Assembly (NCBI GenBank): GCA_963678315.1
Contig: OY782781.1
Coordinates: 1,120,001 to 1,184,000 of the forward strand
Direction: 5' to 3'
DNA: 64,000 nt
Origin: Candidatus Cloacimonadales bacterium
GTDB lineage: Bacteria; Cloacimonadota; Cloacimonadia; Cloacimonadales; JAFGVF01
The position numbers and the translations under genes are program-made. Shown piece after piece: positions 19,610 through 24,695 of this stretch; the stretch's first letter is position 1, and every line of letters begins with the position of its first letter. Under the pieces are notes generated by a model. It saw nothing but the letters and a program-made list of their open reading frames with translations. It searched no databases and was not told the origin of the DNA.

Positions 19610-21146
<1,537 letters not shown>

Positions 21147-21234
21147 AAAGGAGAAATGTTTCTCGACGAGTTCACTTTCATTCTTTCATGATTATAGGGA
21201 CTTTTTTAATCTATATAGTTTCTGATTAAAATAT

Positions 21235-21311
<77 letters not shown>

Positions 21312-21316
21312 GTTGT

Positions 21317-21392
21317 GGGGGATTAGCTCAGTTGGGAGAGCACCTGCTTTGCAAGCAGGGGGTCAACGGTTCGAGCCCGTTATTCTCCACCA
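21317..21392 (+). tRNA. tRNA-Ala (TGC)
   Basis: Cloverleaf, anticodon loop TTTGCAA, G3:U70 pair, encoded CCA. Confidence 0.97.
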
Positions 21393-22562
21393 TATTTTTT
21401 TATCAAAGGAAACTAAGATGTTTAAACAGTAAATAGAGTGTAATATAGAGTGTGTAAGATTTTTTTTTGTAAGAGCAAAAGAGCACATGGTGGATGCCTT
21501 GGCACCAAATGGCGATGAAGGACGTGGTTAACTGCGAAAATCTTCGGTGAGCTGTAAGCAAGCTTCGACCCGGAGGTATCCGAATGGGGCAACCCGGCAC
21601 AAGTAATGTTGTGTCATCCGGTTTACCGGAGGCGAACGAGGGGAACTGAAACATCTAAGTACCCTCAGGAAGAGAAAGTAAAAACGATTTCCTAAGTAGC
21701 GGCGAGCGAACGGGGAAGAGCCTAAACCAGTTGAATAACTGGGGTTGTGGGACTACAATGTAGAGAAGTAATTGATAGACGAATTGATCTGGGAAGTTCA
21801 ACCAGAGAAGGTGAAAGTCCTGTAGTTAAAATTGATTACCATCTTAGTAGCATCCCGAGTAGGTCGGAACACGAGAAATTCCGATTGAATCTGCGAGGAC
21901 CATCTCGTAAGGCTAAATACGTTTGGTGACCGATAGTGAAACAGTACCGTGAGGGAAAGGTGAAAAGGACCCCAGAAGGGGAGTGAAATAGAACCTGAAA
22001 CCGTGTGTTTACAAGCAGTCAGAGCTTAATAGCGATGGCGTGCCTTTTGCATAATGAGCCAACGAGTTAATCTATTCAGCGAGGTTAAGTTTTACAGAAA
22101 TGTAGCCGAAGCGAAAGCGAGTGTTAATAGCGCGTTAAGTTGATTGGATTAGACCCGAAACCGGGTGATCTACCCATGACCAGGTTGAAGGCAAGGTAAC
22201 ACTTGCTGAAGGACCGCACCAACTAATGTTAAAAAATTAGTGGATGAGTTGTGGGTAGGGGTGAAAGGCCAAACAAACCCGGAGATAGCTGGTTCTCTTC
22301 GAAACATATTTAGGTATGGCCTCAGGCAAAAGTTTATAGGAGGTAGAGCACTGAATGGGCTAGGGGACTCACCAGTTTACTGAACCCAATCAAACTCCGA
22401 ATGCCTATAAATGATACCTGGGAGACAGCCCGTGGGGGATAAGCTTCACGGACGAAAGGGAAAGAACCCAGACCACCGGCTAAGGTCCCCAATTTTATGC
22501 TAAGTGAGAAAGGATGTTTAATTGCATAGACAGCCAGGATGTTGGCTTAGAAGCAGCCACCA

Positions 22563-22596
<34 letters not shown>

Positions 22597-22645
22597 GTAA
22601 TGCACCGAAGATGATCGGGACTAAAGCATAGAACCGAAGCCGTGG

Positions 22646-22961
22646 CCCAGCACTTATTTATATTTTTTTTAGGAGTTCGTATGTACTATGTTTATGTGTT
22701 AATAAGTAGAAGTAAAGAGAAATTGTATATAGGATATACATCAAATTTACAACAGCGAGTTAAACAACATAATAGTAAACATAAAGGATATACTAATAAC
22801 GACATATGGGATTTAGTATATTATGAAGCATACTACTCAGAGAAAGATGCAAGACAACGTGAGCAAAAACTCAAACAACATGGAAACAGTAAGAGATTTT
22901 TGAAAGAACGTATAAGTAATAGTATTGAAACAATCTAAAAAAAATACAAATAAGTGCTGGG
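22646..22961 (+). mobile_element. 23S rRNA intervening sequence (IVS) at helix 45
   Basis: 27-nt inverted repeat CCCAGCACTTATTTATATTTTTTTTAG / CTAAAAAAAATACAAATAAGTGCTGGG (one mismatch) between the conserved CCGAAGCCGTGG and GGTAGAAGAGC. Confidence 0.9.
22681..22938 (+). CDS. Stand-alone GIY-YIG nuclease (85 aa) inside the 23S IVS
   Basis: SD AGGAG at 22671-22675, ATG at 22681; YYVYVL..S.....YIGYTSNL..R...HN...YYEAY....AR.RE..LK. Confidence 0.9.
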   Translation: MYYVYVLISRSKEKLYIGYTSNLQQRVKQHNSKHKGYTNNDIWDLVYYEAYYSEKDARQREQKLKQHGNSKRFLKERISNSIETI

Positions 22962-23669
22962 GGTAGAAGAGCATTCTGAACAGCGACGAAGATTAACTGT
23001 GAGGTTAGTTGGAGCGTTCGGAAGAGACGATGTTGGCATGAGTAACGATAATGTGAGTGAGAAACTCACACACCGCAAGTCCAAGGTTTCCTCAGTAAAG
23101 ATAATCTTCTGAGGGTAAGCCGGCCCCTAAGGCGATGCCGAACGGCGCAGCTGATGGGAACCAGGTTAATATTCCTGGGCCTGTTATAATGAGTGATGGA
23201 GTGACGCAGTAATGCTGCACAGACTACTGTTGGATTAGTAGTTGAATGTATGTAGGAGACTTTATAGGCAAATCCGTAGAGTCAATCCGAGGTACAGGAC
23301 GATAGCATAGCTAATAAAGTGTGTTTATAGGACTGCCGAGAAATAGCTTCTAAACGTTGAATTATAACAGACCGTACCCTAAACCGACACAGGTGGACGA
23401 GGAGAGTATCCTCAGGTGTTCGAGAGAATTCTGGTTAAGGAACTAGGCAAAATGACCCCGTAACTTCGGGAGAAGGGGTGCCACGTTAGTGTTAGTATGT
23501 ACAATACAAAGCATGAAGTGGCCGCAGTGAAGAGGCCCAAGCGACTGTTTATCAAAAACACAGGTCTGTGCGAAGAAGTAATTCGAAGTATACAGACTGA
23601 CACCTGCCCGGTGCTGGAAGGTTAAATGGAGAGGTTAGCTTAATTGCGAAGCTTTGAAATGAAGCCCCA

Positions 23670-23757
<88 letters not shown>

Positions 23758-23824
23758 GGGCACTGTCTCAACCAGGAACTCGGTGAAATTGTAATAGCGG
23801 TGAAGATACCGCTTACCCGCGAAC

Positions 23825-23855
<31 letters not shown>

Positions 23856-24194
23856 TCTTGGCATTGTACATTGGTTTAGTATGTGTAGGATAGGTGGGAG
23901 GCTATGACTCATGGTCGCTAGATTGTGATGAGCCGTTGTTGAAATACCACCCTTATTAAATTGATTTACTAACGATATGAAAACATATCGGACATTGCCA
24001 GGTGGGCGGTTTGACTGGGGCGGTCGCCTCCTAAAAAGTAACGGAGGCTTACCAAGGTTCCCTCAAGATGGTTGGTAATCATCTGCAGAGCATAAAGGTA
24101 TAAGGGAGCTTGACTGCGAGACTGACGGGTCGAGCAGGTAGGAAACTAGGTCTTAGTGATCCGGCGGTTCTGAATGGAAGGGCCGTTGCTCAAA

Positions 24195-24227
<33 letters not shown>

Positions 24228-24283
24228 ACCGCCCAAGAGTTCATATCGACGGCGGTGTTTGGCACCTCGATGTCGGCTCAACT

Positions 24284-24334
<51 letters not shown>

Positions 24335-24337
24335 AGT

Positions 24338-24384
<47 letters not shown>

Positions 24385-24502
24385 TTCGTGGGCGTAGGAG
24401 ATTTGAGAGGATCTTCATTTAGTACGAGAGGACCGGTGTGGACGAACCTCTGGTGTATCGGTTGTGGCGCCAGCTGCATTGCCGAGTAGCTAAGTTCGGA
24501 AC

Positions 24503-24535
<33 letters not shown>

Positions 24536-24695
24536 AACCTCAAGATTAGATCTCCCCTTAGAGTCATTGGAGACTACAATGTATATAGGTCACAGGTGTA
24601 CGCATAGCAATATGTTCAGCCGAGTGATACTAATAACTCGATCGTCTTACTTATTAAATTTTATACACTCTATAGCTTTATTTATTATGAATAAG

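Follow-up and report, generated by a model that had tools for sequence, protein, structure and literature searches.

A probable 23S rRNA intervening sequence with a minimal GIY-YIG nuclease gene, and its hairpin-bracketed relatives in stable RNA genes of many phyla

The window (the whole 64,000-nt stretch of a Cloacimonadales genome that was analysed) contains a 23S rRNA gene in which helix 45 is interrupted by a short hairpin enclosing an intact gene for an 85-aa GIY-YIG protein, here called P0001. As judged from sequence comparison, this insert is one member of a phylum-spanning family of hairpin-bracketed GIY-YIG cassettes, and not a one-off. The family is widespread yet barely described, and sits in exposed hairpins of ribosomal and other stable RNA genes. 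We propose that the insert is a selfish cassette of the intervening sequence (IVS) type, whose unit consists of the conserved hairpin arms together with the minimal nuclease gene, and we put the probability of this reading at about 0.6. The window adds to the family a helix-45 case from a complete genome outside the CPR, in which the gene is intact and an ORF-less sibling insert is also present.

Anatomy of the helix-45 insert

The insert lies in a complete rrn operon, in which Rfam places the 16S rRNA gene at 19610-21145, two tRNA genes, the 23S rRNA gene at 21467-24654 and a 5S rRNA gene. With the insert, the 23S gene (plus strand; RF02541, 2779.9 bits, model positions 1-2925) is 3188 nt long, about 300 nt over its normal length. 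The Rfam alignment of 22300-23300 assigns the extra sequence to the terminal loop of a hairpin at model positions ~1204-1226, and BLAST against E. coli rrlH puts the insertion point at E. coli 1164/1185, in helix 45. Together with the hairpins of relatives, these alignments delimit a cassette of 316 nt (22646-22961, plus strand) in place of the native helix-45 hairpin, bordered by ...CCGAAGCCGTGG on the 5' side and GGTAGAAGAGC... on the 3' side. Its GC content is 28.5%, compared with 47.6% in the rest of the 23S gene and 32.8% in the genome.

The cassette begins with the 5' arm of a stem (22646-22672) and ends with the 3' arm (22935-22961), both given on the plus strand. The arms are 27 nt each and 96% complementary, the sole mismatch being A22660 opposite C22947. 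The first 8 nt of the 5' arm, CCCAGCAC, are the conserved core of the family and stand in for the helix-45 stem, while the 3' arm ends in GTGCTGGG. The MFE and centroid folds each contain the 27-bp stem (z = -7.3; 0/100 shuffles fold as well), and its GC-rich base is aligned by Rfam to the consensus helix, in the place of native helix 45. Between the arms lies the stand-alone nuclease gene (22681-22938, plus strand), which is read in the same sense as the rRNA, starts 8 nt after the 5' arm and has its stop codon (22936-22938) inside the 3' arm. A putative Shine-Dalgarno-like AGGAG, read from the sequence at 22671-22675 (plus strand), is located 5 nt upstream of the ATG and shares its first two bases with the end of the 5' arm. 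No promoter-like site was detected upstream of the ORF; one was found inside it, against 1.9 expected by chance.

The non-coding parts of the insert amount to 35 and 23 nt, and a search of 22640-22967 at E <= 10 gives no Rfam intron family, its single hit being a chance CRISPR-DR match (E 1.2). The first-pass annotation had described an AT-rich insert of 316 nt at helix 45, framed by a 27-bp inverted repeat with one A/C mismatch and leaving no room for a ribozyme, and each of these points is borne out by the alignments, folds and model searches above. The cassette combines the features of a classical IVS (position at the helix-45 tip, long stem, sporadic presence, no self-splicing ribozyme) with those of the mini-cassettes discussed below, namely an ORF of 75-100 aa, arms with a CCNNGCAC core, a length of ~260-350 bp and sense orientation in a transcribed RNA gene.

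The insert is not a product of misassembly, because two DNA runs, each from a different study, yield 348-nt contigs that span 22630-22977, both junctions included, with 0-1 differences; one of these two runs may be the source sample. In run X2, the depths of 57.9 over the cassette, 61 over a shorter insert and ~122 over the flanks fit two copies of each insert. Two cassette copies of equal length are also present in the one-contig genome, so that an assembly artefact or chimeric contig has a practically negligible probability. The metatranscriptome runs X3 and X4 (one study, contigs only) have no cover over 22664-22929, and one contig in each begins at 22962 or 22963. Since this branch point also interrupts a contig of a DNA run, the gap is silent on excision and expression. 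A 17-nt 'empty' hairpin with flanks identical over 24-30 nt turns up in contigs of three runs, one of DNA and two of wastewater RNA. Because the matching flanks are so short, an origin from the same species is not shown.

The nuclease and its cassette family

P0001 matches the GIY-YIG family PF01541 over residues 1-70 of its 85 residues (E 9.4e-17; 61.5 bits, cut-off 22.6). This is its only Pfam domain and there is no DNA-binding domain, which confirms the earlier view of an 85-aa GIY-YIG protein reduced to the catalytic domain. No NCBIfam model scores above its cut-off, and the group I intron endonuclease model TIGR01453 reaches 16.6 bits against a cut-off of 56.05. The AF2 model (pLDDT 90.6) has strands at 2-9, 15-20 and 43-51 and helices at 23-30 and 54-66, a predicted beta-beta-alpha-beta-alpha GIY-YIG fold. 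Sequence and fold both point to UPF0213 protein BH0048 (PDB 1zg2) as the best match (phmmer E 0.0028, Foldseek E 3.2e-3). SLX1 chains follow with TMq 0.58-0.65 and 27-34% identity in Foldseek, HIGLE is also among the best PDB neighbours, and I-TevI comes at rank 15 by fold, with a probability of 0.47 and TMq 0.45. With UPF0213, SLX1 and HIGLE as its best PDB neighbours, P0001 is, by sequence and predicted structure, a minimal enzyme of the SLX1/UPF0213 branch and not a truncated homing endonuclease. The comparison with GIY-YIG homing endonucleases made in the first-pass annotation needs correcting to that extent.

A search of 5.8 billion proteins, limited to lengths of 46-149 aa, returned 1043 relatives of P0001. 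The best are only 61-64% identical, and many lie on contigs of ~0.5-3 kb. An alignment of 44 sequences has 15 invariant and 15 nearly invariant columns, and P0001 carries the consensus residue at all 30. Y5, Y16, R26 and E61 are invariant and H30 is nearly so; we take these five to be the catalytic-type residues of the GIY-YIG family. Mean column identity across phyla is ~54%, which indicates selection on the protein.

To place these genes, we used two independent samples: 79 loci from species-representative genomes and 75 loci from metagenome contigs, 68 of them full length. The ORF lies inside rRNA at 35/79 genome loci and 18/68 full-length metagenome loci, always in sense; at one further genome locus it adjoins an antisense 16S gene. 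At least six sites in 23S and two in 16S are used. In E. coli numbering, the genome loci fall at 23S ~533-540/550-560 in helix 25 (20 of the 79), ~1866 (four), 1164/1185 in helix 45 (two), 1703/1770 (two), 2789/2797-2809 (two) and 275/285 (one), and at the two 16S sites (four). The metagenome sample shows the same rRNA sites, with helix 45 in 0/68. The exact helix-45 point 1164/1185 is common to the window's own genome, a Marispirochaeta MAG and a Cloacimonadota MAG. Among these loci, the closest named rRNA belongs to a Cloacimonadales MAG (16S 87.7% identical over 1337 nt).

Hosts include Pseudomonadota (methanotrophs, Arenicellales, Chromatiaceae), Planctomycetota, Cloacimonadota, Spirochaetota, Bacillota, Deferribacterota, Thermodesulfobacteriota, Synergistota, Cyanobacteriota and many CPR lineages. 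These names are taken from record titles, and MAGs may be mis-binned, as in a 'Desulfurococcales archaeon' contig with a bacterial-type 23S. One Methylomicrobium genome carries two family genes per 23S in 3/3 rrn operons. Gammaproteobacterial inserts at helix 25 can be composite, with ORF-less hairpins flanking the ORF stem on both sides.

The family also extends beyond rRNA. The P3 hairpin of RNase P RNA is replaced by a cassette in a Gracilimonas MAG and a Peribacteria MAG (L063, L067), where the cassette is preceded by the P1 and P2 strands and its 3' arm is directly followed by the universal GAGGAAAGUCCGG; L076 is probably a third such case, as judged from its flank alone. At four CPR loci, the cassette lies 5' of a tRNA gene between two copies of the tRNA's first 10 nt, and at two other tRNA loci the ORF is found between a 5' partial tRNA copy and the full gene. 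In operon gaps of Omnitrophota, the cassette sits mid-way in a larger palindromic repeat, directly upstream of unrelated genes. A plasmid collection gave three weak tblastn matches (36-43% identity, 75% cover). The first-pass annotation's notion of a minimal 23S IVS stands as far as anatomy goes, but the insert is no one-off, since relatives occupy many rRNA helices, RNase P RNA, tRNA contexts and operon gaps.

What most of these loci have in common is their ends. Cassettes measure ~257-350 bp, mostly 290-316, with a few composite exceptions. Whatever the host RNA, the outer ends consist of a core of about (A/T)CCNNGCAC followed by an A/T-rich run. A pair of core motifs flanks the ORF at 35/79 genome and 13/63 metagenome loci, compared with 3/286 and 0/159 shifted controls. 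Flanking inverted repeats score at least 13 at 56/79 genome loci, with a shuffle maximum of 14. Across 45 distinct stems anchored on CAC, an anchor that makes the statistics circular for three positions, C:G is found at -4 in 41/42 and G:C at -1 in 35/43; the other positions vary with 97-100% of pairs kept. Since the core recurs with any host RNA, CCCAGCAC...GTGCTGGG belongs to the cassette and not to the host helix, and simply takes the place of helix 45 in the Rfam alignment. The first 11 arm bases of the window insert are those of a Bacillota cassette at 23S ~2789 (L043), whose ORF is among the nearest protein neighbours of P0001 in the tree. This coincidence of arm identity and protein nearness suggests, at the level of sequence, that arms and ORF travel together.

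Mismatches in the stems are G.U in 12 cases and A.C in 4 (p = 0.077). Such a lean to G.U fits selection at the RNA level, with no need for DNA recognition, and to that extent counts against the explanation we prefer.

A quick tree of 131 ORFs, built from 88 columns, weakly resolved and with 17 rows dropped (10 duplicates and 7 of aberrant length), clusters by insertion site more than shuffled labels do. Site labels require 37 changes against 60.1 when shuffled, and 0/200 shuffles are as low. Strictly site-specific lineages can nevertheless be rejected: helix 25 needs 12 changes, and helix 45, whose three genes lie apart in the tree, needs three for its three rows. In methanotrophs, the genes at the ~1866 site branch from within the helix-25 clade of that host group.

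Copies in the genome, proposed mechanism and alternatives

The genome is a single contig of 2.99 Mb with four rrn copies. Two of the four carry the cassette, differing from each other by a single synonymous GAG/GAA change. The other two carry a 110-nt ORF-less insert that has the first 14 nt of each arm in common with the cassette. The four copies include no empty helix-45 allele; empty sites occur in relatives. The ORF-bearing and ORF-less operons are distinguished by linked substitutions that flank helix 45 on either side and span more than 2 kb, and by a 215-nt spacer segment (window ~21191-21405) that includes both tRNAs. Because the two-plus-two pattern follows operon type, it is not evidence of homing, and the cassette looks resident in its own genome, with no sign of homing going on. 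Likewise, neither the 14-nt arm nor a hairpin with the core motif was found outside the four rrn sites in the 2.99-Mb genome, and hence there is no sign of dispersal. A copy pattern set by operon type and an arm motif confined to four rrn sites both count against our best explanation.

The flanks find a match in 16 of 40 relatives searched. A native hairpin of 12-28 nt, variable in sequence, occupies the site in ten genomes from the same family or order. Five sister-genus genomes have ORF-less inserts of 211-256 nt with similar arms (ACCGCCACTCATTTATAAATT...), in three of the five mixed with empty copies; copy counts for the sister genus are four empty (G007), two plus two (G001), three plus one (G003), two plus two (G009) and four filled (G005). 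A six-frame hmmsearch with the family profile found no nuclease-gene remnant in the five sister-genus inserts or in the genome's own 110-nt insert (best E 0.26), and we reject the idea that these are decayed GIY-YIG genes. The usual IVS cargo does not take its place: PF05635 (S23p/IVP) genes are common in 15 of 21 genomes searched, all of them outside rRNA and none at the helix-45 position of an rrn operon.

With the family profile, the 40 relatives score at most 73 bits, compared with 130 bits for the window's two copies, and so the cassette ORF looks horizontally acquired, to judge from these scores. The genome that holds the window also has three genes of the lower-scoring type, located next to tRNA genes and close to the tmRNA gene. 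The suggestion of a selfish element, made in the first-pass annotation, is strengthened by the conserved hairpin ends, the many sites, the patchy presence and the lack of such a gene in the 40 relatives; a sign of ongoing homing in its own genome was not seen.

If the insert is a selfish IVS-type cassette, its life cycle might run as follows. The cassette would be transcribed with the pre-23S, and host RNase III would probably cut the 27-bp stem. By analogy with known IVSs, this would free the ORF-bearing RNA and leave 23S pieces of ~1.18 and ~1.69 kb, joined by the remaining base of the stem. The host genome does encode RNase III (246.9 bits, cut-off 166.25). Either the precursor or the freed RNA could then act as mRNA through the AGGAG site, for which we see even odds. 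More tentatively, and at somewhat less than even odds, P0001 would recognise the conserved arm as single-stranded DNA or as an extruded hairpin or cruciform; models for such a step would be the Ssn nucleases at their own flanking hairpin repeats, or SLX1 at branched DNA. Nicking at the arm could lead to recombination-dependent copying into homologous copies and, rarely, into other exposed hairpins, and selection would leave surviving cassettes only at tolerated helix tips. It is the presence of conserved ends around a nuclease so poor in domains that calls for end recognition by that nuclease.

The facts from the genome itself could also be read as those of a resident neutral IVS, in which the ORF rides along untranslated or inactive, the hairpin is an expansion that the host tolerates and RNase III removes, and the nuclease has no present role. 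The dependence of the copy pattern on operon type and the absence of copies outside rrn in the genome agree with this, as does the Coxiella IVS ORF, which is not synthesised in vivo according to the available text of PMC4990558. A mere passenger would not be expected to keep all 30 invariant or nearly invariant residues in an intact ORF, to differ between its two copies by a synonymous change only, to retain AGGAG at 5 nt from its ATG, or to belong to a family under selection for its protein across phyla, and we consider this reading unlikely. We find it harder still to credit a classical homing endonuclease gene without an intron, whose target would be the empty helix-45 DNA and whose spread would rely on double-strand-break repair. 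The insertion point shared by the own genome and the Marispirochaeta and Cloacimonadota MAGs would suit such an element, and so would the empty alleles of relatives and environmental runs. Against it stand the size of the protein with no domain for binding DNA, its poor TIGR01453 score (16.6 against 56) and distant I-TevI match, the presence of relatives at eight or more rRNA sites and in RNase P RNA, tRNA leaders and operon gaps, the ungrouped helix-45 ORFs, and a native hairpin whose sequence varies among relatives.

A last alternative would have the protein act on RNA, recognising its own stem in the precursor and helping to excise or stabilise the insert, with the arm as an RNA signal instead of a DNA target. 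In its favour, ORFs inside transcribed RNA genes are always read in sense, mismatches lean to G.U, and the base of the stem mimics the native helix. This bias is not significant, however, and the host has an RNase III, which is enough in known IVSs. To our knowledge, moreover, no GIY-YIG enzyme is known as a ribonuclease. We regard an RNA-acting protein as very improbable and retain the selfish cassette as the preferred explanation.

A bolder version of the selfish cassette can be formulated, which we hold to be doubtful. Here, the family would comprise the smallest autonomous mobile elements of bacteria: units of ~300 bp in which an enzyme of 75-90 aa reads its own hairpin end as single-stranded or extruded DNA, in an Ssn-like manner, and inserts copies of the unit where heavily transcribed genes for stable RNAs expose a hairpin, as in rRNA helices, RNase P P3 and tRNA leaders. 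ORF-less 'classical' IVSs with the same arms, among them the inserts of 110 nt and 211-256 nt, would then be non-autonomous derivatives. If true, this would provide a mechanism, long missing, by which rRNA intervening sequences originate and spread horizontally.

Relation to known systems

Ever since rRNA IVSs were discovered, it has been a puzzle how they come about and how they pass from one helix, operon or species to another, and we know of no mechanism for spread offered by their usual ORF (S23p/IVP). A nuclease cargo, together with ends conserved across phyla and host RNAs, leads to the concrete hypothesis of an enzyme that recognises its own hairpin. There is also a practical side, as such inserts make rRNA genes longer, fragment 23S, break assemblies and mislead binning that relies on rRNA. 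Already in print are helix-45 IVSs, Ssn cassettes and, for the CPR, GIY-YIG ORFs in non-intron rRNA insertions. Among open-access papers and bioRxiv, taken without the supplements of the key papers, we met with no account of GIY-YIG ORFs enclosed by conserved hairpin ends; nor, in open-access papers and bioRxiv, of non-CPR hosts at many rRNA helices or of RNase P and tRNA contexts.

The closest structural counterpart is the helix-45 IVS of Coxiella burnetii. Its terminal repeats form a stem of 28 bp, which RNase III cuts mid-stem to leave the 23S in two pieces, and its S23p ORF is not translated and decaying, as far as the available text of PMC4990558 describes it. The stems are much alike, with 28 bp, one mismatch and a bulge in Coxiella and 27 bp and one mismatch in the window insert. 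So far as that text allows a comparison, both inserts replace the terminal hairpin of the same helix, enclose a small ORF, have no ribozyme, exceed the rRNA in AT content and are distributed sporadically over copies and relatives. RNase III excision is established for the Coxiella IVS (PMC4990558, available text); for the window insert it is presumed from this likeness. The cargo is different, a GIY-YIG nuclease in place of the four-helix-bundle S23p/IVP protein, and the arm sequence of the window insert is common to cassettes at other helices and in other RNAs.

GIY-YIG cargo has a precedent in the CPR. Brown et al. in 2015 reportedly noted non-intron rRNA insertion sequences encoding GIY-YIG proteins in CPR/Patescibacteria. 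The main text of PMC11270868 treats GIY-YIG ORFs in non-intron rRNA insertions of CPR bacteria and judges them not to have spread by homing. As described there, these insertions share with the window insert the GIY-YIG ORF, the lack of similarity to group I or II introns and the position at stem-loop tips in less conserved regions; the term 'inverted repeat' has 0 mentions in that main text. The host of the window insert is not a CPR bacterium and has a 2.99-Mb genome with four rrn operons.

The I-TevI type has the GIY-YIG catalytic fold and the placement of a selfish gene in an essential gene in common with the window insert, which differs in having no intron, linker or DNA-binding domain and in its weak fold match. 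UPF0213 (BH0048, 1zg2) and the nuclease domain of SLX1 are closer, as the best sequence and fold matches of P0001. The SLX1 and HIGLE neighbours act on branched DNA, according to their entry titles. SLX1, unlike P0001, has extra domains and a partner, SLX4, and we know of no hairpin-bracketed gene arrangement for UPF0213 proteins.

In its manner of working, the cassette may resemble Ssn. The available text of PMC11893778 describes small GIY-YIG proteins that cleave ssDNA specifically next to hairpin repeats flanking their own gene. As there described, SsnA with its NTS/SRM repeats (cd10448) resembles P0001 in size, as a very small GIY-YIG protein of one domain, and in having hairpin-forming repeats on either side of its gene. 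The SRM regular expression matched within 200 nt of the ORF at 0/147 loci, at no place in window 22446-23161 and three times in the whole genome. Membership by motif is therefore rejected and Ssn serves as a 'works like' analogy, drawn from the published description. The window arms, unlike the Ssn repeats, pair with each other across the gene, and the cassette lies inside stable RNA genes; rRNA and tRNA have 0 mentions in the main text of PMC11893778. What Ssn does provide, on the same account, is a precedent for sequence-specific recognition by an enzyme that has no DNA-binding domain. Should P0001 likewise prove to cut ssDNA or hairpins in a sequence- or structure-specific way, the Ssn-type toolbox would gain a very small enzyme.

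Operon types and helix-45 alleles

The rrn operons of the Cloacimonadales genome (C1) are of two types, which can be told apart by their spacer and by the insert in helix 45 of the 23S rRNA gene. A spacer segment of 215 nt (window 21191-21405), which encloses two tRNAs (21235-21308 and 21317-21389), is present in both operons that carry the nuclease cassette and missing from both operons that bear the 110-nt ORF-less insert. Additional linked positions also differ between the two types.

Helix-45 inserts of 211-256 nt that lack an ORF are found in genomes of the sister genus (G001, G003, G005, G009 and G010; loci L014-L018 and L030-L033). These inserts form a family of their own, with a conserved internal core of ~90 nt in which nested palindromes abound. 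Their arms (ACCGCCACTCATTTATAAATT...) are similar to those of CPR nuclease cassettes. A search of the sister-genus inserts for a remnant of the nuclease gene found none.

An allele with neither kind of insert is represented in sequencing runs X1 (DNA), X3 and X4 (both wastewater metatranscriptomes). Here, contigs link the flanks of the window joint 22645/22962 through a 17-nt hairpin of native type (ACAGTTCT[A/T]GTAACTGT), with a flank match of 24-30 nt. The joint is an empty helix-45 allele, which belongs to the organism itself or to a close relative.

Small GIY-YIG genes elsewhere in the genome

The genome encodes further small GIY-YIG proteins outside the window. Two paralogues, L011 (C1:11365-11589) and L012 (C1:14193-14438), lie 3 kb apart within a tRNA array and share 47-48% identity with P0001, the protein of the cassette. 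Both are without the CCNNGCAC arms, and each is directly preceded by a terminator-like hairpin. The same array also contains tRNA-like fragments, which are broken up by a CCGGCAGCTGCCGG palindrome. A third paralogue, L013 (C1:2929077-2929280, minus strand), is more distant (41% identity) and is located ~560 nt from the tmRNA gene.

Cassettes in RNase P RNA and at tRNA genes

RNase P RNA has a cassette of the same kind in place of its P3 hairpin in two MAGs, one from Gracilimonas and one from Peribacteria (L063 2458-2770 and L067 2470-2775). The flank AGGAAAGTCCG, taken alone, indicates that P3 is probably replaced likewise in a Saccharibacteria MAG (L076). The ORF of the Peribacteria cassette (L067 2501-2764) contains two in-frame TGA codons, which point either to a TGA-reassigned code or to a decaying gene.

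At four CPR loci (L073, L096, L098 and L109), cassettes with arms GCCCCTCAC... are positioned directly 5' of a tRNA gene and are bracketed by two copies of the first 10 nt of that tRNA (0-2 mismatches). This pattern suggests either that a 10-bp target was duplicated or that the 5' end of the tRNA was carried along. At L116 and L120, a partial 5' tRNA copy (23 to ~38 nt) is followed by the ORF and then by a complete tRNA gene, an arrangement that fits past integration into the tRNA gene.

Nested and composite insertions

In Omnitrophota and similar genomes (L053, L061, L072, L078, L079 and L152), the cassette is embedded in a larger conserved palindromic repeat, with CTTACGGAACGAAGTGACGTAAG... 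flanking it on both sides. It terminates in ...CTCATTAAAGGAG, immediately upstream of the start codons of unrelated genes. In gammaproteobacteria, helix 25 can hold inserts that are composite and 520-580 nt long (L058 2348-2869, L066 and L095). Here, an ORF-less hairpin with the arms of the family is followed by the ORF in a short GC stem of its own, and then by a second ORF-less hairpin.
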